DNA from: a virus
IMG/VR virus record: IMGVR_UViG_3300009509_000013
Coordinates: 10,286 to 74,285 of that record
Strand: one strand, 5' to 3'
DNA: 64,000 bases
In this document: positions 25,406 through 54,978 of the stretch, in pieces
Layout of the letters: the number at the start of each line of letters is the position of its first letter
Numbering within the stretch: the first letter of the stretch is position 1
Translations under genes and position numbers: made by a program
The notes under the pieces: generated by a model
Told to the model about the DNA's origin: nothing
The model's database searches: none
What the model saw: only the letters and a program-made list of their open reading frames with translations

Positions 25406-25792
25406 TCAAAGAACGCCGGTCCAAATTCCGCCGGCGGATTTCTCGACAAGCGCCTTCGTGACTTCAACGCCGGTTTCAATGTCGACGAATCCGCGCTTCA
25501 CTTCGCGCGGTTCCGCGAACTTGAATTCGTCGTCGCCCTTGCGAACGAAGTCGCATTTGAAAAGACGATAATTCACTTCGTCGTCTTTTTGCGTCGGAAC
25601 GTACACTTCCGCGATCACGCTTTTCGAGAAAACTTCAATCGGCCAAACCGAGCCATTCTTCGCGACATTCATTTTCGGCAAAAGATAGCCGGCGAGCGAC
25701 TTCCGAAGCTTTTGCATGAATTCGCCGACCGACTCTTTTTCTCCGAGCGGAAGGTTCGCTTTGTGAACTAGAACTTCGCGTGTTTCTGTCAT
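25406..25792 (-). CDS. hypothetical protein with scaffold-like C-terminal tag (putative internal head protein)
   Basis: 128 aa ending VEKSAGGIWTGVL, compare scaffold end VQKNEGGMWKGVL. Confidence 0.65.
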   Translation of the reverse strand: MTETREVLVHKANLPLGEKESVGEFMQKLRKSLAGYLLPKMNVAKNGSVWPIEVFSKSVIAEVYVPTQKDDEVNYRLFKCDFVRKGDDEFKFAEPREVKRGFVDIETGVEVTKALVEKSAGGIWTGVL

Positions 25793-25803
25793 GATTGATC
25801 CCC

Positions 25804-26211
25804 TTACCTTTCGCCGCTTCGCGACGGTTGTCTATCTGCAAAGAACGCCTTGACCATTGTCGGCCCGCCTATGTCGTCATAGGTCGCGGTCGGTTGAAGC
25901 CGCGTTATGTAAACGTCGGTCTTCAAGCCGCCCATTTCAATGAACCGATCATTTTGTTGAAGCTCGATCCCTTGCGCCGCAAGGTCGACGTAACGAAAAA
26001 GAGCGTAACCCGAAGCGCCCTCTTGCGCTCCGCCCTTCGTCATTGACAACCCAAGTTCGAAATCCCATTTCACTTGAGCCTTGACCGTCTTGACCGGATT
26101 CCGCTTCGCGAATTGAATCGGCTCCCGTGCGTCGTCGTCGACGAACGAACCCGCCCGGTCGATTTGTTCAATCTTGACCGGGATCGGGTGAATCAAATTC
26201 GGAACCGGCAT
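25804..26211 (-). CDS. head closure / head-tail joining protein
   Basis: 135 aa beta-rich protein after the adaptor; DDDAREP motif. Confidence 0.65.
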   Translation of the reverse strand: MPVPNLIHPIPVKIEQIDRAGSFVDDDAREPIQFAKRNPVKTVKAQVKWDFELGLSMTKGGAQEGASGYALFRYVDLAAQGIELQQNDRFIEMGGLKTDVYITRLQPTATYDDIGGPTMVKAFFADRQPSRSGER

Positions 26212-26220
26212 TTCTTCCCC

Positions 26221-27327
26221 CTACCTAAAAGACCAATGCGCCGGCGTCGCCGCGCCCATTGGCGCGCGATACAAGCGCAAGATTTGTTGAATCTCCGGGT
26301 CGCTTGTGACTCCGTTCAAAATCCCCGCCGGTTGCGCCTTCGGAGCCGTGACCGCAAACTTCCGCCGGTGATCGTCGGTTTCTTCTTCAACAAGCGGTCC
26401 CGTCGCCGGCGGCGGCGGAGCGGGGAGCGTTGCCGCTTGCGCCGGATTGATCGGATTCGTGATCTTCTCATAAACGAGCTTCATTAGAGCCCGTCGAATC
26501 GCCTTCGGCGTCGAACCGTCCGCTTCCGTGTAGCCGAAGATCCCTTTGATTTCTTGGTTCTGATAGCCGCGCCGGAAACGATTCGAGCCCGAATAGTTGA
26601 CCGGGCGATTGAAAATGTCGAAGCTTTCTTCGGGCTTCAACGAAATTTTCGGGTTGTGCCTATGGTCCGGGAAACCCGCGCGCCCGTTGTAAATCACATA
26701 AGCTTCGGGATCGAGTTCGACCGTCGACTTGTTGATCTTGATATAGTCGATTGAAATGATCGGAACCCCGAAAAACAACGTGTCCGAATCGTTGCCGTCA
26801 ATCGACAAGATCATTTGACGCGCGTTGAACCATTGGCGCGTTGTCCGTTCAAGGATCGCTTGCCAAAGTTCGATTTGCGCGAGAACGTCTTCGTCCGCCA
26901 TCATTGCGACGTCGATCCCCAAGTCGCGAATGTCTTGAACGCTGCAATAGGTATCGACCGACGACCCCGCCGACTCGACCAAAACTTCGAAGTCTTCGAA
27001 GCCGGCTTGATACGCCGACGAAGGCCCGACCTTCCAACGCCATTCGATCCTATGCGTTCCGATTGGCTCCGCAAGGCTTGGGGTCCAACCTTTCGCCGCG
27101 CCGTTGTCGTAAGCGTAATATGAGCCAACGCCAAACTTTCCGGGCGCGCTCGAAACGTCTTCATAGTCGCCCGGCGTCGTCGGGAAGATTTGAGTTCCGG
27201 GGAGCCCCGCCGAAATGTCGAAGATCCGAAACCCGATTTCGTGCATGTCGGTTAGAACGCCGTTGACCGTCACAAACCAATTGATGATCGACGGAAGATT
27301 TTCTTGACCCCTTGCTAGTGCTGGCAT
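26221..27327 (-). CDS. head-tail adaptor (gp6/gp15-like) with N-terminal Ig-like domain
   Basis: YCSVQDIR...ILER.TRQWF, G.FGY, PKAIRRA and IQQILRLYR motifs. Confidence 0.75.
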   Translation of the reverse strand: MPALARGQENLPSIINWFVTVNGVLTDMHEIGFRIFDISAGLPGTQIFPTTPGDYEDVSSAPGKFGVGSYYAYDNGAAKGWTPSLAEPIGTHRIEWRWKVGPSSAYQAGFEDFEVLVESAGSSVDTYCSVQDIRDLGIDVAMMADEDVLAQIELWQAILERTTRQWFNARQMILSIDGNDSDTLFFGVPIISIDYIKINKSTVELDPEAYVIYNGRAGFPDHRHNPKISLKPEESFDIFNRPVNYSGSNRFRRGYQNQEIKGIFGYTEADGSTPKAIRRALMKLVYEKITNPINPAQAATLPAPPPPATGPLVEEETDDHRRKFAVTAPKAQPAGILNGVTSDPEIQQILRLYRAPMGAATPAHWSFR

Positions 27328-27337
27328 GATCGATCCC

Positions 27338-27634
27338 CTATGGATAAGTCCCGGTCGGATCGAACGGCGAACCGACGACTTCGAGCGCCGTCAACCCGGA
27401 CGTGTCCGCGTCGATCACAAAGCCTTGAAGCTTGTCGTTCGTTCGGGGCGCGACCGTCGTTTGAATGCGCGTGTCCGTGATTTCGGTCCAACCTTTGCGC
27501 GGATCGGTCGGCGAATAGACGACGCCATTCCAAATCAAGCGAAAGCTCCCCGGAACGAATCGAACCGGGGATTCGAATTCTTGATTTGCGCCGTCGACCG
27601 CGCCGACCAAATCCACGATCAAAGCGTCGGACAT
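27338..27634 (-). CDS. small beta-rich virion protein
   Basis: GAVDGANQEF...F.PGS..L.WNGV motif; abuts the upstream stop. Confidence 0.6.
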   Translation of the reverse strand: MSDALIVDLVGAVDGANQEFESPVRFVPGSFRLIWNGVVYSPTDPRKGWTEITDTRIQTTVAPRTNDKLQGFVIDADTSGLTALEVVGSPFDPTGTYP

Positions 27635-27847
27635 TCATTCCCCTTTCGCGTCGGTTGAAGCGCCGTCCGCTTCGCTCGACTCGCCTTCCGCCGGCTCCGC
27701 TTCAACCGGCTTCGCTTCGTCCGCCGGAGCTTCCGCCGCCGGCTCGACCGCTTCAACCGGCTCCGCTTTCGGAGCGACTTCCGGTTCGACTTGCGATCCC
27801 GCGCAAGCGTATAAAAGACAACCGAGAATGATCAAGAAATACCGCAT
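27635..27847 (-). CDS. small lipoprotein (spanin or exclusion candidate)
   Basis: MRYFLIILGCLLYAC signal/lipobox-like peptide followed by an E/A/P-rich tail; GGAAAGGGG SD. Confidence 0.6.
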   Translation of the reverse strand: MRYFLIILGCLLYACAGSQVEPEVAPKAEPVEAVEPAAEAPADEAKPVEAEPAEGESSEADGASTDAKGE

Positions 27848-27861
27848 TTTTGACCCCTTTC

Positions 27862-28275
27862 CTACGTTTGAAAGTCCGAATCGCGAAACCCCTTCGGGAG
27901 CGGTTGCGGCCAAAGCAAACCGAGCCCCAAGCCCGCGACGCAATACAAGATCAACCCATATTGCACGGGAGCCCCAAAAAACCAAAGCGGGAGCCTTCCG
28001 AGCAAATCGAGAACAACGCCGACCGCCGCAACGGTTGAAGCGCCGGCGAGCATTCCGACCCGAAGCCAACGTCGCCCCGAATAGAACACGGGAACGAACC
28101 AATGCGTCGGGAGAACGCACGTCATGACCGCGATCATGGGGTGACGAAACGCCGCGTCGGTCGTGATCGCGCTCCAAGTGTTCCCCGCCGTGTCGTCGCT
28201 CGCGAGAAAAATGTCGACGATCACGAAAAGCGCAATCGTCCCGAACCAAATGAACGCGACCGTTTTCTTTGTCAT
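27862..28275 (-). CDS. membrane protein with about 4 TM segments (holin candidate)
   Basis: Four hydrophobic stretches, KK near the N-terminus; ATGA overlap with upstream gene. Confidence 0.6.
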   Translation of the reverse strand: MTKKTVAFIWFGTIALFVIVDIFLASDDTAGNTWSAITTDAAFRHPMIAVMTCVLPTHWFVPVFYSGRRWLRVGMLAGASTVAAVGVVLDLLGRLPLWFFGAPVQYGLILYCVAGLGLGLLWPQPLPKGFRDSDFQT

Positions 28276-29072
28276 GGCGACGACTCCGTTTCCGAAATCC
28301 CGTAAATCGTCGCGACTGCAACGTCGCCGCCGAACTCCGCGTCGTTTTCAAGCGCGATTCGGATTTCCATTCCGACCGACGCCTTCAAATCCGTCGCGCC
28401 GCGCTCAGAATAGGGCCAACGAAAAACGTGAATCGGCCCTTTCATTCCGCGCCATGACGACCCGCCCATTTGCGGAATCGACGGATAGGCGAGCGACGCT
28501 TCGTTGATAAAGTCCATCATGGTTTGATAGACGGTCGGGCTTCCGTATGGATTGCCGGCGACATACAATTGAAAAAGAACCGTGTCGTTCAATTCGACAT
28601 TCTCGGAAAATTGAACTTCGATTTGCGTGATCCGAAGTGTTTTCCCTTGTTCCGGCTTGATCGTGAAAGTCGATTTGTCGGCGTAATGATAATGAACCGC
28701 GACGACCGTCTTTCCCGACTGTGACGAATTGAACGTGACCGCGCCGGTCAAATAGTTGATCGAATAGTCTTTGTCAGTTTGCCCCGGTGAATTTTCTTCA
28801 ACCGGGGAGCCGTCGACTTCGATTTCGGGTTGATAGACGTTGCGAAGATCACGTTCGCCCGTCAACTTCCCGTGTGTGACGTCGACCCAAGCGCGCGCCG
28901 TTGCCGGTTCAAAAGTCAATCCGTCGCCGGAATCCGTCAACGTTTCGTCGGTCACTTCAACCGAACCTTCGAACCAAGTCGTCTTGTCGCACCAATTCGG
29001 AGAAATGACTTCAAGACGACTTACTTCGGAAGCCGGTTCGATTTGAATCTTATGGTGTGTCGCTTGTGGCAT
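28272..29072 (-). CDS. putative virion protein
   Basis: TAATG coupling; contains DYSINYLTGAVTF...V.YHY beta module. Confidence 0.65.
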   Translation of the reverse strand: MPQATHHKIQIEPASEVSRLEVISPNWCDKTTWFEGSVEVTDETLTDSGDGLTFEPATARAWVDVTHGKLTGERDLRNVYQPEIEVDGSPVEENSPGQTDKDYSINYLTGAVTFNSSQSGKTVVAVHYHYADKSTFTIKPEQGKTLRITQIEVQFSENVELNDTVLFQLYVAGNPYGSPTVYQTMMDFINEASLAYPSIPQMGGSSWRGMKGPIHVFRWPYSERGATDLKASVGMEIRIALENDAEFGGDVAVATIYGISETESSP

Positions 29073-29278
29073 TAGCTTTGCTCCGCCGGATTCGCCCGGA
29101 ACTTGATTCGAAATCCTTCCGGCCAAGCCGTCGAAAGTGTTTCAAGCGGACAAACCCAAATCGCGACGCCTTCAACGTCGCTCGATTCATGACCTTCGAG
29201 CTTCTTTTCGCCGACTAGAACCATTTGCGTTCCGGGGTGCTTCGGGCATTCCGGCGGCGGGTCGCGAGCGATTGTCAT
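29072..29278 (-). CDS. small protein with CxxH...C motif
   Basis: 68 aa, coupled on both sides; CPKH and WVC. Confidence 0.55.
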   Translation of the reverse strand: MTIARDPPPECPKHPGTQMVLVGEKKLEGHESSDVEGVAIWVCPLETLSTAWPEGFRIKFRANPAEQS

Positions 29279-30444
29279 GTTACCGCGCCCCTTTCAAGTT
29301 CGAAGAAGCCGTTCGCGTTGACCGCGCAAGCGGCGGCGTTCGACGCCTTGTTTTTGACGCTCGCGATCAAGAAATGCCCCTTCGATTTTTCGAGCTTGAT
29401 CGGCGCGCCGAATTGAACTTGTTGTGACGACGACGCTTGAACAAATGCGTCGACGACGCGATCAAGCTTGTCGTATGTGACGACAATCGCGACGCCGCTT
29501 CCGGGAGCGGTCTTCAAATTGATTGCTTGTCGTAACCCGTCCGCCGAATCGTCGACCGTGTAATCGGCGACAATTGTCTTCGGAACCCCGTCAACCGTTA
29601 CCGCGACATGACTCGCCGCCGCGACCGCATTCGCCGAAAGTTCGAAGATCTTCGTCACACCGTCGCCGACGAAATTTTCAACCGCGTCGCGCGCGATTCC
29701 GCGATAAACCAAAAGTTCCGACGCTTGATCATTGCCGATCAAAAGATCGGTTATGAACGCAACGTCGATCTTCGGATTCGTCGTGAGCCCCGCGACTTCT
29801 TTGTCGAAGAAAACCATTTCGGCGTTTGTCGCGAGAACGCGGCGAACCGACAAAAAGATCGGGTTGTCGGCGCGTGTCCGCGTTCCGACTTCGCCGAAAA
29901 CGCCGATTCGCCCGACGCGCCAATCTTGATCGTCAACTTCAACCAAGATTCGCTTGAAAAGCCGTTGAAGCGTTGCGTCGTTTACGGTCGCCGTCAAGTC
30001 GAGCCCGGAGCCCGAACCTTGCGCGGTTGAAGCGGAAAATGAAATTCCTTCGAGCTTCAAACCCTGTTCAATCGCGCGAATGAAAAGCGCGCAATTGTGC
30101 GATCCCGCGATCCAATTGTCGTCGAAATCTTCGTCGGCATTGAAAAGAGCGGCGAGCCCCGCCGCAATGTCGAAAACCGTGTCGCCCGCTTCAACCGTGT
30201 AGACTTTTTGAAATGACCCAACGTTGACCGTGACCGTGTTTCCCGCTTCCGGGTTTCCGGCAATCGCAACAAAGCCGAAAGGGTTGTTGTCGAAACCGAA
30301 AATGTTCCCAACCCCCACAACGTCGAGCGTCAAGTTCACGTTCGTTTCAAGCGCGCCGTTGTCGACGTTGACCGGGGAGCCGTCTTCGCTTCGAAGCGTG
30401 ACGCCTAGATTCCCGTCCGGTGTTAGGCTAGGAACGAAGCTCAT
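29275..30444 (-). CDS. putative virion decoration protein
   Basis: 389 aa beta-rich; F.GDG.TK.F.L...V.VDGV...DYTV module. Confidence 0.65.
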   Translation of the reverse strand: MSFVPSLTPDGNLGVTLRSEDGSPVNVDNGALETNVNLTLDVVGVGNIFGFDNNPFGFVAIAGNPEAGNTVTVNVGSFQKVYTVEAGDTVFDIAAGLAALFNADEDFDDNWIAGSHNCALFIRAIEQGLKLEGISFSASTAQGSGSGLDLTATVNDATLQRLFKRILVEVDDQDWRVGRIGVFGEVGTRTRADNPIFLSVRRVLATNAEMVFFDKEVAGLTTNPKIDVAFITDLLIGNDQASELLVYRGIARDAVENFVGDGVTKIFELSANAVAAASHVAVTVDGVPKTIVADYTVDDSADGLRQAINLKTAPGSGVAIVVTYDKLDRVVDAFVQASSSQQVQFGAPIKLEKSKGHFLIASVKNKASNAAACAVNANGFFELERGAVT

Positions 30445-35033: not shown

Positions 35034-36233
35034 TTACACGCCTTGACCGATGTTCTTCGCGAAAACAATCGCGTCAAGTTCTTCGTAATTGACCGCGACT
35101 TTCGCCGTGATCGCATACTGATTGACGCCCTTGTAAATGTCGCGATCTTTCTCGATCCGAATGTCGCGCCCGATCCCGACGATCATGTTGCTTTGATGCG
35201 TCAAGATCATTTGCGGATTCGCGTCGAACGTGACCTTGACAACGGTCCCGGTCGGAATCGAAGAAGCGGCGTCGCGCTTCACGGTTCCGGCGGCGTAGTC
35301 AACGATATAATCGTTGCCCGCGCCTTCGACGTATGGCGTGATCGGAGTTCCGCCAAGATCCGGCGGAGTCACGACGACGTTCTCGACCGGGGAGAATCCG
35401 AGCGCGGATTCGGCAACGCCGGTCAAGGTAACGTGAACGGTCGTCCGAACGGTGAAGTCCCAAAGCGGAACTTCCACAATCGGAACGCCGAACGGCGATT
35501 GCATGGAACCGCCGGCGGCGGAGTCGCCAAGCGCGGTTGCGCGTGTGGCGAGCTTTTCCATGTAAAGTTGCGCCAAGTCGGGCGACATGAACCAACGCAA
35601 CGCCGACTTGTTCCGGCGGAACTTGGTCGGCATGGCGCGAATCATCTTCCCGAAGATCGCGAGCCCAATGTTCGCGCCTTCGGCGTCGACGACATGCGCG
35701 CCGCGAGCGAGCTTCAACCAACCGTCTTGAAGCGCAAGATACGAATCCTTGATATACTTCGTCGAAGATCCGTTGTCTTTCAGATCGCTTTCAAGGGCGG
35801 CGTGACCGAGCAAGTCGCCGTTGATGTAGAGTTCTTCGAGATCGTTGGCGGTTTGCGTCGACATCATGCGAATGATGTGTTCTTCAACGTTGTCGCCTTC
35901 GATATTGATCTCTTTGAAGTTGTCGCCGATCTCGAACGGAACGATCAACTCGCGCGGAGTCAACGTCACCTTCGAAGTCGACACGCCGCGACGAAGCGCG
36001 ACGTCTTGGGCTTCCGCCTTCGGGAGCGCAAGCCGCTTGCCGACGCCGATCTTTTCGATCTCCAAAGACTCGTTGCGAAACCGAACAACGCGAGCGTTGT
36101 TCTTCAAAACGGTTTCGTCGACAACGTAGTCAATGAAGCGGTCGCTTTGCGCCGGATTCAACTTGCCAGCGGCGGCGAGCGCGTCGGTCGTGATAACAGC
36201 CTTTCGAACGATTTCTTCGTTGGGAATGCTCAT
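35034..36233 (-). CDS. major capsid protein (HK97 fold, PBSX XkdG-like)
   Basis: AGKLNPAQSDRFI, NIEG, DLEEL.INGD, DGWLK, MPTKF, FGVPIV.VP and RDIRIE motifs; GGAGG SD. Confidence 0.92.
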   Translation of the reverse strand: MSIPNEEIVRKAVITTDALAAAGKLNPAQSDRFIDYVVDETVLKNNARVVRFRNESLEIEKIGVGKRLALPKAEAQDVALRRGVSTSKVTLTPRELIVPFEIGDNFKEINIEGDNVEEHIIRMMSTQTANDLEELYINGDLLGHAALESDLKDNGSSTKYIKDSYLALQDGWLKLARGAHVVDAEGANIGLAIFGKMIRAMPTKFRRNKSALRWFMSPDLAQLYMEKLATRATALGDSAAGGSMQSPFGVPIVEVPLWDFTVRTTVHVTLTGVAESALGFSPVENVVVTPPDLGGTPITPYVEGAGNDYIVDYAAGTVKRDAASSIPTGTVVKVTFDANPQMILTHQSNMIVGIGRDIRIEKDRDIYKGVNQYAITAKVAVNYEELDAIVFAKNIGQGV

Positions 36234-36292: not shown

Positions 36293-37300
36293 CTACAGAA
36301 CGCCCTTCCACATTCCGCCTTCGTTCTTTTGAACGTCGACGGTCGAATCGGTCTTGCCTTCGTCGTCAACCGACTTCGACGGGGCGCGAGCCTTTTCGAT
36401 CTTTTCGATTCGCTCCGTCACGGGAGCGATTGCCTTCGAAACCGCCTCTTGCACGATTGAAGCGACGTCGACGGGATCGGCGTTGCCGCCGTTGCCGTCT
36501 TCCGACTTCATGGTTCCGACCGGCTTCACGCCGCCCTGAAACTTCGTGTCCGCCGGAAGCGCCTTCGAAAGATCCGCGAGCATTGCCTTCGCAATGGCGG
36601 GATCAACGTCGCCGATCAAGTTCACAAGGTTCGAAACCGTGCTCTTGATCGAATCGATCCGGCTTTGCGTGAAGCTTTTCGACTTCACGACGGGTTGACC
36701 GGAAACGAGAACGCTTCCGTCTTGCATGACTTGAACCGCCGGAACCGGAGCGTCGGCGTTGCCGTCTTCGCTCTTTTTGGTTTCGGTTTTCTTCGTCTTG
36801 TCTTTTCCGCCGAACATGAAGCCCGCCTTTTGAAGTGCCGCCTTGTCAACGGCGTTCGCGCCCTTCGCGAAGTTCGCGACCGCCTTCAACGAAGCAACGA
36901 TTTCCTTGGGAAGTGCCTTTTCGACTTCGACTTCGGAAGTCGAACCCTCCCCGGCGTCGGCATTGGTTGAAGCGGCGTCGCCGCTTTCACCTTCGCCTTC
37001 CGCGCCCGCGTCGGCATTGGTTCCGGGATCGGTTGCTTCGCCGTTCCCTTCCCCGCCGTCCGCGTTCATTTTGACGATTTCGGTTTCGGAAGCGTTGCCT
37101 TTTGCTTCCGTCTTCGCTTCGTTGTCCGCCGCGAATGCACTCATTTTTTCGCCTCCTAGCCGTTTAACAACCAAAAACTCCCGCAAATTTGCGGGACGAT
37201 CCACAAGGGATACTTCTTTGACGTCCAAGTCGAGCAAGCGCCGCGCCTTCGACGTCTTCGCTTTCTCGACCGATACCACTTTTTCTTGTTCAATGTCCAT
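36293..37300 (-). CDS. capsid scaffold protein with N-terminal protease-like strand
   Basis: LLDLDVKEVSLVDRPAN N-terminus, low-complexity E/G/A/K body, ends GGMWKGVL; internal AGGAGG-N7-ATG at 37144. Confidence 0.8.
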   Translation of the reverse strand: MDIEQEKVVSVEKAKTSKARRLLDLDVKEVSLVDRPANLREFLVVKRLGGEKMSAFAADNEAKTEAKGNASETEIVKMNADGGEGNGEATDPGTNADAGAEGEGESGDAASTNADAGEGSTSEVEVEKALPKEIVASLKAVANFAKGANAVDKAALQKAGFMFGGKDKTKKTETKKSEDGNADAPVPAVQVMQDGSVLVSGQPVVKSKSFTQSRIDSIKSTVSNLVNLIGDVDPAIAKAMLADLSKALPADTKFQGGVKPVGTMKSEDGNGGNADPVDVASIVQEAVSKAIAPVTERIEKIEKARAPSKSVDDEGKTDSTVDVQKNEGGMWKGVL

Positions 37301-37337
37301 TTTCACAGACTTTCCCCAATCGTTCGCGACCAATTTT

Positions 37338-39320
37338 TCAGGAAGCGACGGTTGCGATTCCCCCAATCGAAAAGCCGGTGATCTTGCCGGCTTTGATTTT
37401 CTTCCAAAGTTGATCGTTCTCGATCTTGACCTTCATGATCCAAGATCCCTTTTTGACTTTCTTCCCGCCAAGCTTCATTGCGACTTCGGAAACGTAGCTT
37501 TCGACAAGCGTCACGCCGATTTGACCGAAAATCGTGTGCATCAAACCGAGCTTCGTCGATTCGCGATAGCGCGCCAAAAAGTTGTGCGCCGCCTTTTCGA
37601 TCACGGCTTCGTCAACCGTGTCTTTTTGCGCGTCGACCGTTCCCGGCTCCAAAACGACGCCCGTCACTTGCCGCTTTTCCGCCTTCAAAATCGGAACGAA
37701 GACTTTCTCGATTTGCTCCGCTTCGTCCGGGCTCCAAGTCCAAGCCCCTTCGCCGACTTCTTTCAAGACGAAGACGCCTTTCACTTCCGCGCCGTCAAGC
37801 TCGACTTTCATTTCAGAATCTTCGAGCTTCAAGACGCGAGCGGAACCGGCGTCAAGCTTCGTGATCTTGCATTCGACGCCCTTCGTCGGATTCAAGAAAT
37901 GTCCGCCGGAAACGACGCCTTCGAAATCGAGCGCTTCCCTATGCGGTTCCGACTTGAACACGACTTCGCAAACGCTTTCGGGGTCGGCGTCCGTTCCCAT
38001 TTCAACGGAAACAAGTTCGTCGTGACCAATGTCGAGCCGGAGCAACGTCGATTCTTCGCCGCCGGCGACCGCCTTGTGAATCGCGAAACGGGAATGATTC
38101 ATTGACGCCTTGCGGATTTCCCGCTTGAACGGAAGCGCGAAGTCGATCTCGACGTCGCCCTTCGTGATCGCTTGAACCAAACCGTCGCGAATCGTCTTCG
38201 CTTCGCCGTCGTCGGTCTTTTCCCAATAGCGGGAGCCTTCCGGGATCTGCTTTCGAACTTCAACCGGAAGCGCCGAAACGCCCGCCGGCGGAAGCCAACC
38301 CTTTTCGACCGCTTCTTCGGTCAAAACGAACGGCGTGAAATCGTCGGAGTGTGACGCCTTCCAATCGTCGCCGTCGCGCTTGAACAAAATCGGATAATTC
38401 AACCCCGTTCCTTGGGGGAAATATTCGTGAAACCCGTCGAATTGTGCGCCGAATTCGACGACGCCCTTTTCGACGATTTGCAAAACGCCGCCTTCGTCGT
38501 CGAAGATCCCCGCCTTCGTCCGCGCTTCAATGTCGAGCCATGCGACCGGAGCCGGAGCTTTGCGCTTGCAAACGACTTCCCGCTTCCATTCGCCGGAACG
38601 GAAATCAATCGCGGAAACCGCTTCAACCGGAAGCGCCCGCGCTTGCTTCAACGTTTCGACGGGAGCCGTCACGGGAGCGATTTGCGTGTCGAGTTCCCAA
38701 CCGACCGCGACGTCGCCCGCCCGCGCTCGGAATTCGCTTCGGAGCGCCTTCCCGATCCATCTTTGGTGAACCGTGAACGGGTGCTTTTCGTCTTCTGTCG
38801 GAACGTCGACAAACGGATCGAGCGTTTCGCCCTTTTCGACTTCGACCGAATTCACAACCGCCTTCGTCGCGTCAATCGGTTGAAGCGTCGGTCGCTCCGC
38901 CTTCGTGACTTCGAATTCGGTTGAAACGTCGTCGAGCATGTCGCCCGGCGGGGAAGGGTGCGCGACGTTCCGGTCGGCGAGTTCGTCGACGATCAAAGCG
39001 TGAAGGTTCATTGAACCTTCGCGATCCGCCTTCGTCATGAACTCCCGGTGAAGCTCCGCGTGAAGCTCGACAAGCTCCGTCGCCGAACATTTCGAAACGT
39101 CGATCACGTCCGACCAAAACTTTTCGGTCGCCGTCTTGCGCTTCGGCTTTTCTTCTTTCACTTTGATTCCGCTTGAACCAAGCGAAGCCGGAGCGAGCTT
39201 CCCGGCGTTTCCGAGATCGGTTGAAGTGATCGCCTTCGACGCTTCAACCGTTGATCGCTTTTCGATCTTGTCGGTCGCCGACATTGCCCGTCGCGGCATT
39301 CGTTTTCTTTTCGCCGTCAT
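37338..39320 (-). CDS. prohead protease (C-terminal XkdF-like domain) with large N-terminal extension
   Basis: KRQVTGVVLEP..VDAQ.D, IEKAAHNF, MH, VESY, GSWIM and LW..IKAGKITGFSIGG motifs. Confidence 0.88.
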   Translation of the reverse strand: MTAKRKRMPRRAMSATDKIEKRSTVEASKAITSTDLGNAGKLAPASLGSSGIKVKEEKPKRKTATEKFWSDVIDVSKCSATELVELHAELHREFMTKADREGSMNLHALIVDELADRNVAHPSPPGDMLDDVSTEFEVTKAERPTLQPIDATKAVVNSVEVEKGETLDPFVDVPTEDEKHPFTVHQRWIGKALRSEFRARAGDVAVGWELDTQIAPVTAPVETLKQARALPVEAVSAIDFRSGEWKREVVCKRKAPAPVAWLDIEARTKAGIFDDEGGVLQIVEKGVVEFGAQFDGFHEYFPQGTGLNYPILFKRDGDDWKASHSDDFTPFVLTEEAVEKGWLPPAGVSALPVEVRKQIPEGSRYWEKTDDGEAKTIRDGLVQAITKGDVEIDFALPFKREIRKASMNHSRFAIHKAVAGGEESTLLRLDIGHDELVSVEMGTDADPESVCEVVFKSEPHREALDFEGVVSGGHFLNPTKGVECKITKLDAGSARVLKLEDSEMKVELDGAEVKGVFVLKEVGEGAWTWSPDEAEQIEKVFVPILKAEKRQVTGVVLEPGTVDAQKDTVDEAVIEKAAHNFLARYRESTKLGLMHTIFGQIGVTLVESYVSEVAMKLGGKKVKKGSWIMKVKIENDQLWKKIKAGKITGFSIGGIATVAS

Positions 39321-39362
39321 TGTTGCCCGCCATGATAGCCGGAGAAAGTCGAAGTTCAAAAC

Positions 39363-39577: not shown

Positions 39578-41647
39578 CTAGAACGCCGCGTTCACGTTGC
39601 GTTCAAGTTGCTTTTGAAATTCTTCGGTGAATGAAGCCGCTTCGCTTTCAGTCATTCCGGCGATCATTCTCGCCGGCGGCTTCGTGCTTCGCGCGAAGTG
39701 TTTCGGATAGTCTTGACCGCGCATGACCGTTGCCCGCGTCGACCGCATTTTGATTGAAGCGGCTTCGAGAATTTCGTCGAGTTCCTTTTCGGCGATTCGT
39801 TCAACGTCGATTCCGGCTTTCGCGATTGCGGTTTCGGTTGCGGCGGCGATCTCTTTTTTGACCGTCTTGATTTCGTATTCATACGCGCCATAACGCCGCC
39901 CGGTCTTTGCGTCGACAATGCGCGCCGGATTGACGCCCCATTTTCGGATCATGATCTGTCGACTCAAGTGTTCACAAGTCGCTTCTTCGAGCGCAAGCGC
40001 CGCGCCTTTCAATTGGTTCAATGCAATCGGCGCGTGTGAATGAATCGTTTCGTGAACCAAAACCGAAAACGCTTCGTTCGCCGCGTCCGTTCGCGCGCCC
40101 TTTGCGAAAAGCGCCGCTTGTTTTTGAACGTCGCGCGTGATCCAAATCGCGCCATTCTCGACGAACTTCCCGTTCGCGCGCCCCATGTTTTGTTTGACTT
40201 GCGCGATCAAGAAATTGAATTTGTCGCGCTTGTCTCGCGTCGCGGTCGCCGTTTCGACGTTGCTCCAAATGATCGACCGCTCGATCATTCCGTGTTCCGC
40301 CATAAGCGCGTTCAATTCTTTGCGGATCGCCGCTTGTTGCGCCGGCGAATATTGCTTGAATGTCGCCGTTACGCCGGGAATCCCTTCGCGCTTCGCCGCG
40401 ACCGCCTTTTCAAGCGCCTTTTGATTGAACGCCTTCGTCGGCGTGACGTTCGTCTTCGGAAGATCCGGGAAGATTGTCTTCGCCGCTTGCGCCGCTTGCG
40501 ACGCTTGAATCGCAGAAGCCGCAACGCCCGCCGCGCGCCCGATGTTCGTCACGTTGCGCGAAATTTCAATCGGGTCGGAAAGGTTTTCATAGGTCGTCGA
40601 TTCTTCCGAAACGTCGACCGTGCAACGGCAACGAAAGTGAAACGGCGGGGAAGAAAAGCCGGCGTCGGCGAGCGCCTTCGCGTCTTTCGGACCTTGCGGA
40701 CCTTTGCCGCTTGTGACATTCGCGAGCTTCCCCGGCGATAGCCAAGGGTGAGCTTTCCGCATGTCTTCGGGAGTCGTCGCTTCGAGATCGCGAACCATTT
40801 GATCGACGCCTTGACGAACCGAAAAGATCTTTCCGTTCATTGTGTCGCAAACCGGACACGTTCGTTCGTCGCTCGGATTCACGATTTCGTAATAGGTGAC
40901 GCCAATCGACGCGAAGCTTCGCATTTGACCTTGTGCGCGCGCGACCGTCGCCGCGTTCGCGACAAGCCCTTCGAAATATTGCCGATCCGTTCCGGTGAAT
41001 CCCTTCGGTGTCGAAAAGATTCCGAGCGCGTCGCGCGTTCGCTCCGCCATGACCTTTCCCGCCGCGCGTCCGACCGCTCCGGTTTCCATTGCTTCGCGCG
41101 TCGTCTTTTCGATTGTTTGCGCGACGTTTTTGTCGAAGTGCTCCCCGATCCAAAGCGTTTGTTGATCTTTGATCGCGCGAAGCGCTCCGTCGTCTACCAC
41201 GTCGAACGACGGCAAAACTTGCGCCTTGAAGCCCGCCGCCTTTTTCACTTCCGCCGTTGCGTTCGGCGTATCGAATTGAAGCGACGCCTTCGTTTGTCGC
41301 GTTGCTTTCTTGTGACCGGCGATCCGCGCGAGCCGATAGACTTCCGCGATCTCCCGGTTGAAGCGCGGCGTGACCGCCTTCGCCCAAGGTCGCATGATTC
41401 GCTTGATCGTCGCCGCGATTTGAGCCGACGAAGCCCCGCGCTCCGCCATGCTCCCCGCTTTCTCCGCCGCTTTTTTCGAACGGTCGCGCCATTCCTTCAA
41501 GAGATATTCGCGAAGACGTGTTTCGATCTTCGCGATTTGCGCGACTTCCGAAAGCCGAAGCGCCTTCGCGATCAAGACGTCGGAAGCGATCAACCCGTCA
41601 TAGAGCCGACCGACGTCAAGCCTTTGTGTCGCCGCCGTTGAAGCCAA
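39578..41647 (-). CDS. MuF/SPP1 gp7-like minor head protein with C-terminal zinc metallopeptidase
   Basis: DERTCPVC..MNG and PPFHFRCRC MuF motifs; C-terminal LVHETIHS...LEEATCE; start codon uncertain (TTG). Confidence 0.88.
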   Translation of the reverse strand: MASTAATQRLDVGRLYDGLIASDVLIAKALRLSEVAQIAKIETRLREYLLKEWRDRSKKAAEKAGSMAERGASSAQIAATIKRIMRPWAKAVTPRFNREIAEVYRLARIAGHKKATRQTKASLQFDTPNATAEVKKAAGFKAQVLPSFDVVDDGALRAIKDQQTLWIGEHFDKNVAQTIEKTTREAMETGAVGRAAGKVMAERTRDALGIFSTPKGFTGTDRQYFEGLVANAATVARAQGQMRSFASIGVTYYEIVNPSDERTCPVCDTMNGKIFSVRQGVDQMVRDLEATTPEDMRKAHPWLSPGKLANVTSGKGPQGPKDAKALADAGFSSPPFHFRCRCTVDVSEESTTYENLSDPIEISRNVTNIGRAAGVAASAIQASQAAQAAKTIFPDLPKTNVTPTKAFNQKALEKAVAAKREGIPGVTATFKQYSPAQQAAIRKELNALMAEHGMIERSIIWSNVETATATRDKRDKFNFLIAQVKQNMGRANGKFVENGAIWITRDVQKQAALFAKGARTDAANEAFSVLVHETIHSHAPIALNQLKGAALALEEATCEHLSRQIMIRKWGVNPARIVDAKTGRRYGAYEYEIKTVKKEIAAATETAIAKAGIDVERIAEKELDEILEAASIKMRSTRATVMRGQDYPKHFARSTKPPARMIAGMTESEAASFTEEFQKQLERNVNAAF

Positions 41648-49963: not shown

Positions 49964-50026
49964 GGTTCCGATCTCCGTTCCTTCCGTTGCCGGCGGAGCC
50001 CCGCGCCCCGCCGGAGTTCGGTCGAC

Positions 50027-50323: not shown

Positions 50324-50390
50324 TCTATACTTAGTGTCTCATGAATCGGTTGAAGTGTCAACCCCTAATTTCAAAAAAAATGATCTTTTT
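50312..50390 (-). promoter_or_regulatory. early promoter cassette 2
   Basis: TTGACA (50361-50356)-N17-GACACT (50338-50333)-AAGTATAGA-ATGAAGAACACG. Confidence 0.75.
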
Positions 50391-50449
50391 TCTGCTAGGA
50401 AAAATTGAAGTTTTGGCGGGGAGTTCGGGAGCGCGAAGCGCTTCAACCG

Positions 50450-50677: not shown

Positions 50678-50749
50678 TGTTCCGATCTCCGTCAATGAAC
50701 GACGGAGCCCGCCGGCGACCGCCGCCGGCGAAGCTCCGCGCGTTCGTGT

Positions 50750-50950
50750 TCACTTGCAAAACCGGGGAGCCGCGCCCCAACGTTCCGACGTGACGCGATC
50801 CGCTTCTTTGACGATCAAAAGATCGGCGTCCGCGCGATAGCCCATGACGACCGCCTTCACGCCGAAATTTTCGACGACGTGACCGAAGGCGACCCAACGC
50901 CCCGACGCGATCTTGACCGGCTCCATTCTGTCGTTTTCGAATTGTCGCAT
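50750..50950 (-). CDS. small early protein
   Basis: CGGAG SD before ATG 50950 (MRQFENDR). Confidence 0.55.
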   Translation of the reverse strand: MRQFENDRMEPVKIASGRWVAFGHVVENFGVKAVVMGYRADADLLIVKEADRVTSERWGAAPRFCK

Positions 50951-51015
50951 TTGCTCCGCTCCGTTTCGGTTGAAGGGGAGCGCCGGGGTCGAGCCCCGCG
51001 CGCTCCGCGTTTCTG

Positions 51016-51330
51016 TTACTTGTTCACCATGCGATAGATCGTTTCGTTCAAGTTCTCGACGAAGACGCCGTTCGCCGACTCGACGACTTTCATTTCGTAG
51101 GTTCGGCGATTGAAGCGAACGAACTCGACGTCGTAAAGGTCGAGCGCTCGGTCGAGCTTGACGACGATCTTCGTCAACTTCGAACGACCGACGACGAAGT
51201 GAAGACCGTCTTCGCCCGCGACCGCTTGACGCGCTCCGCAAGCCATTTTTGTTCCGACCGTGATTTGACTCCAAATGATTTGACCCGCGTTCATGGTTTC
51301 CGTTCCTTTCGTTGTGTCCGTGTTCTTCAT
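51016..51330 (-). CDS. small early protein
   Basis: MKNT start or ATG 51294 with AAAGGA; I..QI...GAR...DLYDVEF...GVFVENL motif. Confidence 0.65.
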   Translation of the reverse strand: MKNTDTTKGTETMNAGQIIWSQITVGTKMACGARQAVAGEDGLHFVVGRSKLTKIVVKLDRALDLYDVEFVRFNRRTYEMKVVESANGVFVENLNETIYRMVNK

Positions 51331-51418
51331 TCTATACTTAGTGTCTCATAAAAAGCGGAGCCCGTCAAGCAAAAACGACAAGAAAAATTGAAAAAACGAC
51401 ATGAATTTTTCAAATATT
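51319..51418 (-). promoter_or_regulatory. early promoter cassette 3
   Basis: TTGACG (51368-51363)-N17-GACACT (51345-51340); 51363-51418 is identical to 53081-53136. Confidence 0.75.
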
Positions 51419-51502
51419 AGAGCCAAAACAGAGCCAAAACAGAGCCAAATTTCGTCAATAATTACGCCTAGTTGTGAACGACGCCCTAGAATGCCCTAGA
51501 AT
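51419..51502. repeat. short tandem repeats
   Basis: AGAGCCAAAAC x2 plus a partial third (51419-51449); GCCCTAGAAT x2 (51483-51502). Confidence 0.85.
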
Positions 51503-51607
51503 CGACGCAACGAAGCCCGCCCTTGTCCGCGCCCGTGCGACCCCTGAAACGCGCTTGACGCCCCGGAATTCGCGCCCCTATGCCCAAAATTGAGCCCTTC
51601 CGCCGGC

Positions 51608-51752
51608 GATTCAACCGTTCGGGGAAGCGACGCTTCAACCGTTGCGCCCCGCTTCAACCGTTCGGGAGCCGTCGCTTCAACCGAAAGTGATCCAAGGGAT
51701 CGAAGCCCGATCCGGTCGGCTTGCGCCGACCGGCGAGCGCTCGCTTCAACCG
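51608..51752. repeat. cluster of TTCAACCG repeats in non-coding DNA
   Basis: TTCAACCG at 51610, 51634, 51653, 51676 and 51745. Confidence 0.85.
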
Positions 51753-52108
51753 TGATACGCGGCGACGACCGAAACCTTCCCGGCGATCTCGCGTTTGAAC
51801 TCCGCGACCATTTCGGGATCGAACGACCGGAACCGCGACCGGGAAGTCGACACGCCGTTCGCGCTTGTCGTCGACTCGCCGAAGATCGAAGCCGGGGTCG
51901 GTTGGTTCCAACCGTCAACGATCAAAATGAACGGAGCGAAGCCGCCGACGATCTCCGACTCGCTCCGCTTGCGCTTCGCGACGAAGCGAACGAACGGCGC
52001 GGCGTCGTATTGCGCCCAAGTCTTGCGCCCGTGTTCGATCAACTTCGCTTCAATCGCGATCACGTTTCCGAAAAGCTCGCTCTTTGTGTAAATCGTGACC
52101 TTTCGCAT
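51746..52108 (-). CDS. small early protein
   Basis: 120 aa; AAAGGG SD. Confidence 0.65.
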   Translation of the reverse strand: MRKVTIYTKSELFGNVIAIEAKLIEHGRKTWAQYDAAPFVRFVAKRKRSESEIVGGFAPFILIVDGWNQPTPASIFGESTTSANGVSTSRSRFRSFDPEMVAEFKREIAGKVSVVAAYHG

Positions 52109-52121
52109 TGTTCCGACCCTT

Positions 52122-52250
52122 TCAAGCCTTGCGGCTTATGGTTGCGCGCTTCGCGGTTCCGGTCGTCGGGCGAACTTGGCAAGCGTTCCCGGTTGCCAGC
52201 GTTGCCAGAATGACCATGATCGCGAATGCTTTGTTTGCCGTGTTCTTCAT
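52122..52250 (-). CDS. 42-aa signal-peptide-like ORF (not in ORF track)
   Basis: MKNTANKAFAIMVILATLATGNACQVRPTTGTAKRATISRKA* beginning at the cassette 4 start site. Confidence 0.45.
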   Translation of the reverse strand: MKNTANKAFAIMVILATLATGNACQVRPTTGTAKRATISRKA

Positions 52251-52320
52251 TCTATACTTAGTGTCTCATAAATCGGTTGAAGCGTCAAGCAAAAAACGCA
52301 AGAAAATCTGATTTTTTTCG
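52239..52320 (-). promoter_or_regulatory. early promoter cassette 4
   Basis: TTGACG (52288-52283)-CTTCAACCG...N17-GACACT (52265-52260)-AAGTATAGA-ATGAAGAACACG. Confidence 0.75.
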
Positions 52321-52364
52321 GGTTATTTTTCGGATATTTAGACGAAGGCGGCGATTTTTCGACG

Positions 52365-52392
52365 AAAACCGCCGGGAATCGAACCCGGCGGC
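52365..52392 (-). terminator. intrinsic terminator
   Basis: GCCGCCGGG-TTCGATT-CCCGGCGGT-TTTC after the stop at 52406. Confidence 0.6.
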
Positions 52393-52405
52393 TTGCGTTT
52401 CCGAC

Positions 52406-53020
52406 CTAGTAAAGCGCCTTGACCGCTTCGAGCAACCGGCGAGCCGTCACGACGTCGCCCGCGTCGATTGCCGCTTCAACGCGCGCGTGAAGCAAGTTCC
52501 GAGCGTCGGCGATTGCGTCGTTCGTCATGGGGATCGAAAGAACGTTCGCGGCTTCGGCGACCGGCTCCGCTTCAACCGTCGCGGCTTCGACGATTGCTTC
52601 GGCGGAGATCACAACCGCCGGAGCCGCGCGGAGCGCTTCAAGTTGCGCGTCGGCGGCTTCGCGAACCGAAACATGCTTATAGAAATCAACGTCGAAATAG
52701 TCGGTCATTGAATCGGAGTCGTCGCGATTGTAGGCTTCGACGATCCCGGCGATCTTGTCTTCGGTTTCCTTCCAAGCGTCGAGCGCTTCCCAATCCCGCC
52801 CATATTCGTCGTTAGTGTCGCGAAGCGTGACGAATTGAACCGGAGCTTCTTTGACGTCGACGGAAAGGCTTTGGCCCATGCTGTAACGGGAAATCCGAAC
52901 GCCGAACTTCCAACCCTTGCCGAAAGCGGCTTTCAAGTCGGCGCGAACTTTCTTCGCGACGTCTTTCAAGTCTTGCCCGTTCTCGAATTTGCTTCCAATG
53001 TATCCGCGTCCGTAACTCAT
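52406..53020 (-). CDS. LPD29-like domain protein
   Basis: AKKVRADLK..F...KFGVR...YSMG.S..V...YN.DDSDSMTDYFDV motif; GGCGGAG SD. Confidence 0.7.
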   Translation of the reverse strand: MSYGRGYIGSKFENGQDLKDVAKKVRADLKAAFGKGWKFGVRISRYSMGQSLSVDVKEAPVQFVTLRDTNDEYGRDWEALDAWKETEDKIAGIVEAYNRDDSDSMTDYFDVDFYKHVSVREAADAQLEALRAAPAVVISAEAIVEAATVEAEPVAEAANVLSIPMTNDAIADARNLLHARVEAAIDAGDVVTARRLLEAVKALY

Positions 53021-53047
53021 GATCTCCGCCTTTCTTGTTGTGTTCCG

Positions 53048-53136
53048 TTCTATACTCTTTGTCTCATAAATCGGTTGAAGCGTCAAGCAAAAACGACAAG
53101 AAAAATTGAAAAAACGACATGAATTTTTCAAATATT
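53048..53136 (-). promoter_or_regulatory. early promoter cassette 5
   Basis: TTGACG (53086-53081)-CTTCAACCG...N17-GACAAA; duplicated 56-bp upstream block. Confidence 0.7.
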
Positions 53137-53335
53137 CGGATTCATTGAAGATTTTCTTCAAAAAAAATTGCTTTTTTGGGGTCGATTTTTCTGAAATTAG
53201 GCTTCGACGGAGCCCCGGAACGGAGAAACCGGAGCCCCGTCGAGCCCGAACGGAACGGAACGAAGTCGATTCGTTGACCCGGCGAGCCCCGCCGGGAGCC
53301 GCCGGCGGTTAGCGCCGGCGGCTTTCGTCGTCGGT

Positions 53336-53869
53336 TCAAGCGGCTTCGGGAATCACGAACGCGCCTTTCGGCCCGATTCCTTCGACGCCGGGGAAGTAAG
53401 CCTTCAAGACTGCCCAAAGATTCCCCTTGTAAGCCGCCGGGAACGTGTTCAACTTGGCTTGTTTGTCCCAACGTCGACCGGGAACCCGGCGGAGCGCGGC
53501 GACAAAGCCTTCGAAGTCTTCGTCGGTCGGCTTGGCGCGGAGCCCGATCCGGTCGCCTTCGAGTTCGACGATCTCGACCGGGCGAACGCGCTTCACGATC
53601 CGGTCGGCGAGCTTGTCGCAACCAAGCGCGCGGAGCGCGGCGACGCCTTCGACGACCGCGATCCCGGTCTGTTCAAGCGCGATTGCGTAAACGATCCGAT
53701 TCGCTTCGGCGCGCTTGTCTTCGTCGAGCGACGCGACGCCGTATTTCTTCCGGCAATCGGGACCGAGCCCGGCTTCGACGGAAGCGGCGTCAACCAAGGG
53801 ACGACCGCAAGCGGCGCAATGGGTCGCGAGCATTTGCGTTGCGGGAGCGTTTTCATAGTTGCTTGACAT
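53336..53869 (-). CDS. DUF6011-like Zn-finger protein with C-terminal HARP-like domain
   Basis: CAACGRPL.D..S...GLGPDC and C-terminal VPGRRWD...FP; ACGGAGATC SD. Confidence 0.7.
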   Translation of the reverse strand: MSSNYENAPATQMLATHCAACGRPLVDAASVEAGLGPDCRKKYGVASLDEDKRAEANRIVYAIALEQTGIAVVEGVAALRALGCDKLADRIVKRVRPVEIVELEGDRIGLRAKPTDEDFEGFVAALRRVPGRRWDKQAKLNTFPAAYKGNLWAVLKAYFPGVEGIGPKGAFVIPEAA

Positions 53870-53898
53870 GGTTTCGATCTCCGTTGTTTGTGTTCCGT

Positions 53899-54084
53899 TC
53901 AACCCTTCGCGATTTCGACCGCCGCGCGATAGCTTGAAAGATTCTCGCCGCGACCGTCGACCGTTCCGATTTCAAAGCCGTCGCCGATCCGCGTGACGAT
54001 TCGCCCGAAGACAACCGCCGTCGCGCCTTGCGAAAGCTCGAAAAGCCGTTTCCGAATGTTCTCGATTTTCTTTGCGTTGTTCAT
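53899..54084 (-). CDS. small early protein
   Basis: AAAGGGAACGGAAC-ATG directly after cassette 6. Confidence 0.6.
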   Translation of the reverse strand: MNNAKKIENIRKRLFELSQGATAVVFGRIVTRIGDGFEIGTVDGRGENLSSYRAAVEIAKG

Positions 54085-54096
54085 GTTCCGTTCCCT

Positions 54097-54165
54097 TTCT
54101 ATTCTCAGTGTCGCAAATTCCCGCGTTCGTGTCAAGTCTAATTTCGAAAAAATTCACCTAAAAAG
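54097..54165 (-). promoter_or_regulatory. early promoter cassette 6
   Basis: TTGACA (54135-54130)-N17-GACACT (54112-54107); upstream block nearly identical to 49731-49764. Confidence 0.7.
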
Positions 54166-54241
54166 TGATAGGAAAAACGCCAAATATTCCGACAATTTGA
54201 CAGAAAATGACCGCGAGCGCTTCAACGAATCGGCGTTTTGC

Positions 54242-54270
54242 TTGTCGATTTTAGTCAAAGCGGATAGAAT
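54242..54270 (+). promoter_or_regulatory. sigma70-like promoter of the divergent HTH operon
   Basis: TTGTCG-N17-TAGAAT. Confidence 0.55.
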
Positions 54271-54325
54271 TGAAGAATCAAGATTGACGCCGGCGGAACG
54301 CCGGCAAAACGACGGAGTTCACAAA

Positions 54326-54583
54326 ATGCCAAGGGGAAGAACCGCGAAGGTTGAACCGAAGACGGAAGGCGCGCGCCTTTTGCTCGAAGCAATCGAGAAC
54401 GATCCGAAGCTCGACCAAACCCGCGCGGCGCGTGAAGCCGGGCTTCCGCTCGGATTGATCAACCATATCTTGCACGGAAGGCGAAGCCTTTCGCTTGAAG
54501 TCGCCGTGAAAATCGAAAAGCGCTTCGGCGTTCCGCCGGCGGCTTGGTTGGAGCCCGCGCGCGAAAGCCGGGAAGCCGCATGA
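54326..54583 (+). CDS. XRE/HigA-type helix-turn-helix regulator
   Basis: QTRAAREAGL...INHILHGRRSLSLEVAVKIEKRFGVP..AWL; GGAG SD before ATG 54326. Confidence 0.85.
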   Translation: MPRGRTAKVEPKTEGARLLLEAIENDPKLDQTRAAREAGLPLGLINHILHGRRSLSLEVAVKIEKRFGVPPAAWLEPARESREAA

Positions 54584-54687
54584 AGTTGATCGCCCTTTTG
54601 ATTGCGGCGTTCGCCCTTTTGATCGTGTCGATCTTTCTTCATGCGTTCGCCGGAACGCCGGCGAATTTTGATCCGCTCGATCCCTAG
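54580..54687 (+). CDS. 35-aa single-TM peptide (not in ORF track)
   Basis: ATGA overlap with the HTH stop; MKLIALLIAAFALLIVSIFLHAFAGTPANFDPLDP*. Confidence 0.5.
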   Translation: MKLIALLIAAFALLIVSIFLHAFAGTPANFDPLDP

Positions 54688-54702
54688 CGGTATTCTCCCG
54701 CT

Positions 54703-54978
54703 ATGCCATTCCCAAACGAACACGCCGCGCGACAAGTCGACCCCGGTCAATTCGAAAGCTTTCGCCGAACCAAGCCGAAAGGTTTTCCGAAAGGGGTTTC
54801 GGCGATCATAGGAATTCGAAGCAACGGGAAGACCGCGATTCAATCGCTTCGCTTCGACAAAAATCTTTGGACAGTAGCGCAAGCGCGAACGTGGCTTCGA
54901 AACAACAAGTTCAAAACGACAATCGAACCCGCGAGCGGAAAGCCCGTCAACAAAAATTTTTGGGGGAACGCCGTTTGA
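54703..54978 (+). CDS. stand-alone head-associated domain protein
   Basis: MPFPNEHAAR..DP..F..FRR...QSLRFDK..WT..QA..W resembles a module I recall fused to phage head proteases; ends VNKNFWGNAV. Confidence 0.7.
   Translation: MPFPNEHAARQVDPGQFESFRRTKPKGFPKGVSAIIGIRSNGKTAIQSLRFDKNLWTVAQARTWLRNNKFKTTIEPASGKPVNKNFWGNAV

Follow-up and report, generated by a model that had tools for sequence, protein, structure and literature searches.

Encapsulin cargo-loading peptides are short C-terminal sequences that, carried on a flexible linker, bring diverse cargo to the inner face of a shell with the HK97 fold. Among tailed phages, lambda encodes C and Nu3 as nested genes, and engineered P22 nanoreactors fuse cargo to the C-terminus of the scaffold for loading into procapsids. 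The C-terminal tail of the HK97 gp4 protease is reported to be sufficient for procapsid entry (Duda et al. 2013, as cited in PMC7411985), and in T4 the capsid targeting sequence (CTS) of IPI-III and Alt loads non-structural proteins into the prohead and is cleaved by the prohead protease at L/I-x-E (PMC7411985). The scaffold of phage 80alpha and the CpmB protein of the satellite SaPI1 share a C-terminal helix-and-hook by which both attach to the coat protein's N-arm inside the procapsid (PMC5644958). Here, we analyze a window of 64,000 nucleotides (nt) that makes up most of one 74,285-bp virus record (IMGVR_UViG_3300009509_000013; G+C content, 55.6%) and in which three unlinked proteins, the scaffolding protein and two small proteins of 128 and 91 amino acids (aa; p128 and p91), end in the same peptide tail. 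This tail, which we call a tag, is a conserved and portable element, always terminal and specific to this set of proteins, and the tags of scaffolds and of the small proteins (cargo, for short) covary. We propose that it is an address for the interior of the phage head.

A preliminary description of this DNA had singled out the C-termini of the three proteins, and translation returns all three exactly as given there. The proteins, their tags, and the coat protein to which the tags may bind are as follows.

36293-37306, minus strand: scaffolding protein (337 aa), between the protease gene and the major capsid gene
36296-36334, minus strand: C-terminal tag of the scaffold, its last 13 residues, V-Q-K...W-K-G-V-L (from the translation)
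25406-25792, minus strand: p128 (128 aa), domain A followed by a disordered linker and the tag, in the late head-tail operon
25409-25447, minus strand: C-terminal tag of p128, V-E-K...W-T-G-V-L (from the translation)
54703-54978, plus strand: p91 (91 aa), BRX-like domain B followed by a disordered tail and a variant tag (from the translation, Pfam, and a structural model)
54946-54975, plus strand: C-terminal tag variant of p91, V-N-K-N-F-W-G-N-A-V (from the translation)
35034-36233, minus strand: major capsid protein (MCP; phrog_1623, 1.6e-80), the putative receptor of the tag

The genes of the scaffold, p128, and p91 lie 10.5 and 17.4 kb apart, one of them on the opposite strand. Across the whole 74,285-bp genome, all 1088 stop-to-stop open reading frames (ORFs) of at least 40 aa in the six frames were compared with five C-terminal patterns built around a Trp-x-Gly-hydrophobic end (including W-x-G-x-[LVIA], K..W..G..[LV], and V-x-K..W); the scaffold, p128, and p91 were the only ones to match any of them (3 of 1088). 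The tails of the scaffold and p128 agree at 8 of 13 positions, have the rare long spacer K-x-x-G-G-[MI]-W in common, and use identical codons for G-G, G, and V. That of p91 is a weaker variant (W-G-N-A-V), and the same form, with N three residues from the end, is seen again in p91 homologues. The scaffold itself is rich in Ala, Lys, Val, and Glu and matches the C-terminal, scaffold-like part of a fused protease-scaffold family (phrog_3017, positions 271-394, 2.3e-9), and its homologues are encoded directly upstream of the MCP in ~40 related loci.

Searched with the capsid protein, IMG/VR yielded 69 related loci, in which the same motif ends ~35 scaffold, 11 p128, and 7 p91 homologues; the consensus of the tag comprises eight residues, K-[SGD]-[FLMI]-W-x-G-[VI]-[LIV]. 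Searching these loci for proteins that end in the motif, a check proposed in the preliminary description, gave 46 matches to a loose regular expression on the coding strand, against five loose and no strict matches on the other strand. At the DNA level, the pattern W-x-G-φ-φ-stop has 12 matches in five whole related records, all of them on the coding strand, against 3 for a reversed-pattern control. One complete 94.5-kb genome encodes four tagged proteins and another three. A profile search of 1.84 billion representative proteins expands the p128 family to 408 clusters; among the best 149 of these, with representatives at most 50% identical to one another, 74 end in the strict form W-x-G-[VLIA]-[LIVA], 45 in near variants, and 30 in other sequences, so that ~80% are tagged, and several of the 30 are evidently truncated. 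Free-standing p91 homologues have a Trp five residues from the end in ~40 of 46 cases (~85%), and their sub-variant W-[SGN]-N-[IL]-[IL] takes in the W-G-N-A-V of the window. Homologues in all three families keep the tail, contrary to the possibility, raised at the outset, that they might lack it. In the distant cultured relatives identified by their MCPs (Circinus, Grayson, HJ05, and LV6), the scaffold ends in an aromatic, only loosely similar sequence, and no extra tagged ORFs occur within 20 kb on either side of the MCP gene.

The tails also vary in ways that set off classes. Lys stands exactly three residues ahead of Trp in 72 of 94 tagged members of the domain A family. An extended cargo tail, G-x-W-x-[EQ]-T-x-K-S-F-W-x-G-V-L, with a second Trp ~8 residues upstream, is seen in this family (72 of 94 tagged members, e.g., P0055-P0069); scaffolds do not have the second Trp, so the cargo may make an extra contact. 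A further sub-class, W-x-G-[LV]-P-[LF], optionally prolonged by one or two residues ending in K or R, occurs in scaffolds (L027, L029, and L031) as well as in A-family proteins (P0145, P0193, and P0196), a hint from sequence that cargo tags follow the classes of scaffold tags across clades.

Within genomes, the likeness between the two kinds of tail can be quantified. In a permutation test on tail identity in 13 non-redundant genomes, the last 10 residues of scaffold and cargo share a mean of 5.39 identities within a genome and 4.44 between genomes (p = 0.0013; p = 0.003 over the last 8 residues and 0.02 over the last 6). Individual loci illustrate this: F-W-D-G-V-I occurs three times in L014, and G-L-W is found in both scaffold and cargo in L037, while the Lys-to-Trp distance of six, the long spacer common to the scaffold and p128 of the window, is present in only 4 of the 94 tagged A-family members. 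Such covariation favors the idea of a shared tag and points to recent copying or gene conversion, to coevolution with one receptor, or to both.

The tag is borne by at least four unrelated small modules: A (the core of p128), B (the core of p91, which begins P-F-P-N-E-H-A-A-R), C (with the motif L-P-D-x-x-F ... H-L-R-N-A-L-A-R), and a four-Cys zinc ribbon (Z). These are arranged as A, AA, B, AB, BA, AC, CA, AZ, or Z alone, and in every architecture the tag is the last element. Zinc-ribbon proteins with the same tag are encoded in two complete or near-complete related genomes (L076:1501-2100(-) and L083:1267-1518(+)), and the last six residues of the zinc ribbon of the L014 genome are identical to those of its own scaffold and its own p91 homologue.

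AlphaFold2 models p128 as a confident alpha+beta roll (mean predicted local distance difference test [pLDDT] score, 78) with only generic fold matches (cystatin/NTF2/VirB8-like; Z score, ~7), and p91 as a confident BRX-like fold (pLDDT, 85.5). The p91 model superposes on the BRX domain of RLD2 (6l0v) with a root mean square deviation of 2.0 Å over 52 residues (target-normalized template modeling [TM] score, 0.68; Foldseek E, 0.05), and p91 scores 24.1 bits against Pfam BRX (PF08381), for a gathering cut-off of 24.5. Residues 104-128 of p128 and 75-91 of p91 are of low confidence, and disorder predicted in the last 17-25 residues is as expected for a linker and a peptide that folds on binding. 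A protease-like fold for p128, suggested by Atlas TM scores of ~0.5 to prohead proteases, was discarded in favor of the generic matches of its own model, which also finds weak BFVD matches inside “prohead protease” polyproteins. Neither p128 nor domains C and D have a match in Pfam or PHROGs, and sequence-profile searches of the PDB returned none.

Domain B has a second context. It lies inside gp04 of Synechococcus phage S-CBS1 (L086:4251-6761), an 836-aa “major head protein” that consists of an N-terminal domain, B (126-205), an S78 protease (266-374), and a capsid domain (580-832), and gp39 of Roseobacter phage CRP-821 (L087:3335-6259) is a similar polyprotein with domain B, S78 protease, and capsid domain. 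Loci L059 and L066 encode a single chain in which domain B is followed by an XkdF protease. Domain B would therefore seem to reach the head interior by fusion to a protease or capsid protein or, when free, by way of the scaffold tail, and these two routes are the strongest indirect argument for the tail as a head-interior address. Both gp04 and gp39 are annotated as major capsid or head proteins, although they are in fact polyproteins of 836-974 aa.

We consider the following mechanism probable, judging by sequence and by analogy with known scaffolds. The eight C-terminal residues would be the docking peptide by which the scaffold binds the inner shell of the procapsid, and the same peptide, placed on a flexible linker, would serve as a portable address tag that directs small non-scaffold proteins to the same binding site. 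Proteins loaded in this way would bring in domains A (p128) and B (p91), to which relatives add domain C and the zinc ribbon. The XkdF-type prohead protease may then cut after the Lys of [VI]-x-K, a step that would release scaffold and cargo from the wall, fragment the scaffold, and set the cargo domains free. We infer that the receptor is the coat protein because scaffold C-termini act in this manner in P22, phi29, and 80alpha and because 80alpha and CpmB share such a tail. Whether as delivered cargo or as assembly helpers, the small tagged proteins could fill either role. The further proposition, that an eight-residue copy of the scaffold end suffices to encapsidate any small protein, that the cut at [VI]-x-K releases it, and that the domains are delivered to the host with the DNA, is one that we put forward with considerable reserve. 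The preliminary description had held that the coat-binding peptide of the scaffold was copied onto passenger proteins, which are loaded into procapsids and released by cleavage after the Lys. Every comparative test able to overturn this idea came out in its favor, the tail being conserved, portable, terminal, and covarying; loading and release are retained as a proposal.

An assembly role can be framed specifically: the tagged small proteins might be auxiliary scaffolds or assembly regulators that, in the manner of CpmB, dock where the scaffold docks, tune the curvature or size of the shell or the timing of its assembly, and are later removed like the scaffold. CpmB (72 aa) joins an oligomerization domain to the C-terminal hook of the scaffold and competes for coat protein (PMC5644958). 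The p128 gene is part of the late structural operon, squeezed between two late genes (a Neck1-like gene begins 8 nt past its end); its product has a generic alpha+beta roll, a fold often used for protein-protein contacts, and belongs to a family whose very wide distribution and conservation are in line with a morphogenetic role. Four unrelated domains in many orders nevertheless fit cargo better than they fit a precise geometric role, and there are one to three tagged small proteins per genome. Domain B, moreover, also resides in the protease-capsid polyproteins of unrelated phages. On these grounds we regard auxiliary scaffolding as unlikely and prefer docking of cargo.

The candidate release site brings in the head genes upstream of the scaffold. 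The late module is encoded on the minus strand in the order MuF-like head protein, polyprotein/protease, scaffold, and MCP, followed by connector, neck, and sheath genes.

39578-41647, minus strand: MuF-like head protein, in the late module
37338-39359, minus strand: head polyprotein (673 aa) with a C-terminal XkdF-type prohead protease domain (PF14550, 6.8e-30)
~37341-37682, minus strand: the XkdF-type protease domain, residues 560-670 of the polyprotein, i.e., its last ~110 residues

The protease domain is well above the Pfam gathering score (PF14550; 104 bits, for a cut-off of 24). Matches to [VI]-x-K-[ASGNP] number 12 in the polyprotein, 8 in the scaffold, and 5 in p128, against 2.6, 2.05, and 0.59 expected from shuffles (which control for composition only and not for the periodicity of secondary structure), and 0-1 in sheath, neck, and baseplate-region proteins. 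A longer form, [VIF]-x-V-x-K-[AGNSP], has 13 matches in 88,825 residues of six-frame ORFs, 7 of which are in the polyprotein, scaffold, and p128. In relatives, scaffolds and cargo have 16.4 and 14.4 matches to the motif per 1,000 residues, respectively; the capsid protein has 7.0, polyproteins have 6.8, and the remaining long ORFs on the same strand have 2.2. V-x-K directly precedes domain B in all four fused proteins (4/4), and the free forms start M-P-F-P-N-E-H; V-x-V-x-K-A is found on both flanks of domain A, near whose end a Lys is nearly invariant; and the N-arm of the MCP has a conserved [LV]-V-x-K-A at residues 8-12, as seen across homologue N-termini. Enrichment of the motif in head-internal proteins, together with the exact boundary of domain B, leads us to suggest, tentatively, that the XkdF-type protease cuts after the Lys of [VI]-x-K, a pattern similar to the sites known for T4 gp21 (L/I-x-E) and for giant phages (A-x-E; PMC7411985).

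The tag might instead be a docking site for the XkdF prohead protease; it would then mark proteins for processing or degradation, with the nearby Lys as the first cut. In keeping with this, [VI/T]-x-K nearly always precedes the tag and is enriched in the same proteins, and the protease, being untagged, must find its own substrates. Yet scaffold C-termini bind coat in every system studied (P22, phi29, and 80alpha), and an exosite gives free-standing small proteins no reason to carry a tag unless they are already inside the shell. Fused domain B, for its part, would be processed with no tag of its own at that position. We therefore judge protease docking to be quite unlikely and keep to the shell as the binding partner.

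Polyprotein residues 42-58 (39186-39236) copy residues 11-28 of the MCP N-arm (36150-36203), with 11 of 18 residues identical (E, 1e-4) and the shared motif K-A-[IV]-x-[ST]-T-D..L..A-G-K-L-x-P-A; N-arm-like starts are also present in the giant polyproteins of L003, L005, L008, L014, L019, L022, and L027. Were the tag to bind the coat N-arm, this copy could let scaffold tails recruit the untagged protease; alternatively, the likeness may reflect a shared cleavage and recognition site. About 20 residues past the N-arm-like segment, the polyprotein has an internal E-K-F-W-S-D-V-I (residues 79-86; 39102-39125), which is conserved in no homologue and which we set aside as a coincidence or a remnant.

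The junction between protease and scaffold was considered as a place where a frameshift or read-through might join the two and so tag the protease; this was rejected, there being no conserved recoding (the scaffold is in the +1 frame relative to the protease in the window and in the same, +1, or +2 frame in relatives). The protease ORF ends in G-F-S-I-G-G-I-A-T-V-A-S (37338-37380). The stretch E-V-S-L-V-D-R-P-A-N, which follows G-F-S-I-G-G in fused XkdF proteins, sits at the N-terminus of the scaffold in the +1 frame (37187-37216), where it is the best-conserved part of scaffold homologues. This N-terminal strand of the scaffold may complete the protease, or dock to it, in trans.

The N-arm copy also bears on whether the tag binds something else, for instance the portal, the polyprotein's N-arm-like segment, or, in self-association, the scaffold, or whether it is an amphipathic, membrane-active end that has nothing to do with head assembly. 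Since the N-terminus of the polyprotein copies the coat N-arm and does so in relatives too, a non-coat partner with the same surface exists, and the tag is itself hydrophobic and rich in Trp. With its hundreds of copies, however, the scaffold is too abundant for the portal; the sequences of the tagged proteins show no signal peptides or membrane segments; and the tie to scaffold and head polyproteins is consistent throughout. A different partner is thus improbable, and the coat shell remains our preferred one. Resemblance by chance or composition, for which only the short length of the motif speaks, is already refuted by a motif that is unique in the genome, strand-specific, kept across hundreds of diverged homologues, and always terminal, and we dismiss it.

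Several observations weigh against docking and release as proposed here. The p91 gene of the window is on the plus strand behind a gene resembling helix-turn-helix (HTH) regulators, outside the late module, and its tag is the weakest, a degenerate one, whereas the p91 homologues of relatives are encoded within the structural module and on its strand. Domain A is absent from all cultured phages (50,697 phage records), and no long forms of it fused to a protease were found, although this last is weak evidence. The protease polyprotein and all of its homologues are without a C-terminal tag, so some other route must serve at least one head-internal protein. Finally, the enrichment of [VI]-x-K may partly reflect amphipathic helices or strands in proteins rich in Lys, Ala, and Val. 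With respect to its surroundings, the p91 gene and the HTH-regulator-like gene together make up a plus-strand islet (53993-54978) in a region coded mostly on the minus strand, and the timing of p91 expression may differ from that of the late genes.

How phages select non-structural proteins for packing has been worked out in detail only in a few models (the T4 CTS and the HK97 protease tail), and packed head proteins include many early anti-defense or takeover factors. The tag would provide a short sequence rule by which head-internal proteins could be recognized in metagenomic sequence, across a clade that has hundreds of diverged members. The finding also predicts where proteases of the poorly studied XkdF family cleave. 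If the proposal is true, the tailed phages of this large, uncultured clade possess a general, natural cargo-loading system whose domains are BRX-like, NTF2/cystatin-like, zinc ribbons, and others. As a living intermediate, the system would stand between phage scaffolds and encapsulin cargo-loading peptides, and it suggests a compact, ready-made natural tag for loading proteins into HK97-fold shells. Scaffold-coat recognition, satellite piracy by CpmB, and encapsulin cargo loading, which are mostly treated apart, would thereby be linked.

How far, then, do the described systems anticipate this one? Capsid-targeting peptides as such are already established, and a scaffold tail common to a second protein is known once, from the satellite protein CpmB; we found no description of the present tag in the literature on XkdF, capsid targeting, encapsulins, or scaffolds. 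The location of the tag, at the extreme C-terminus of a scaffold whose gene adjoins that of the MCP, is that of P22, phi29, and 80alpha. As in 80alpha and CpmB, the short C-terminal peptide of the scaffold is common to a second, otherwise unrelated small protein, but CpmB comes from a hijacking satellite, whereas here the copies are in the phage's own genome; moreover, the hook there is RIIK rather than K-S-F-W-x-G-V-L, and here at least four modular domain families carry it. The T4 CTS is likewise a short address peptide; it is removed at a hydrophobic-x-charged site, for which [VI]-x-K is the candidate counterpart here, and its proteins can travel with the DNA. It is, however, an N-terminal propeptide of ~10-20 residues that binds the scaffolding core and not the shell and is not a copy of the coat-binding end of the scaffold, while the present tag is C-terminal in every architecture. 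In HK97 gp4, lambda C/Nu3, and the P22 fusions, a C-terminal segment suffices to bring a protein into the procapsid, although these are, respectively, the protease itself, a nested in-frame product, and an artificial fusion rather than unlinked natural genes with an eight-residue tag. Encapsulin peptides resemble the tag in standing at the C-terminus after a flexible linker on unrelated proteins (compare the low-pLDDT tails and four domains here), but encapsulins have no scaffold, protease, portal, or DNA packaging, and their peptide remains uncleaved and has a Gly/Ser/Leu-type rather than a Trp-centered consensus. An encapsulin shell is in any case excluded for the window, which belongs to a tailed phage with terminase-side genes, a MuF-like protein, a protease, a scaffold, and sheath and neck genes. 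What is new is that a phage employs the tail of its own scaffold a second time, as a C-terminal tag on several small modules that are unlinked and unrelated and recombine freely, and that this tag is conserved over hundreds of diverged members and paired with a candidate release site.

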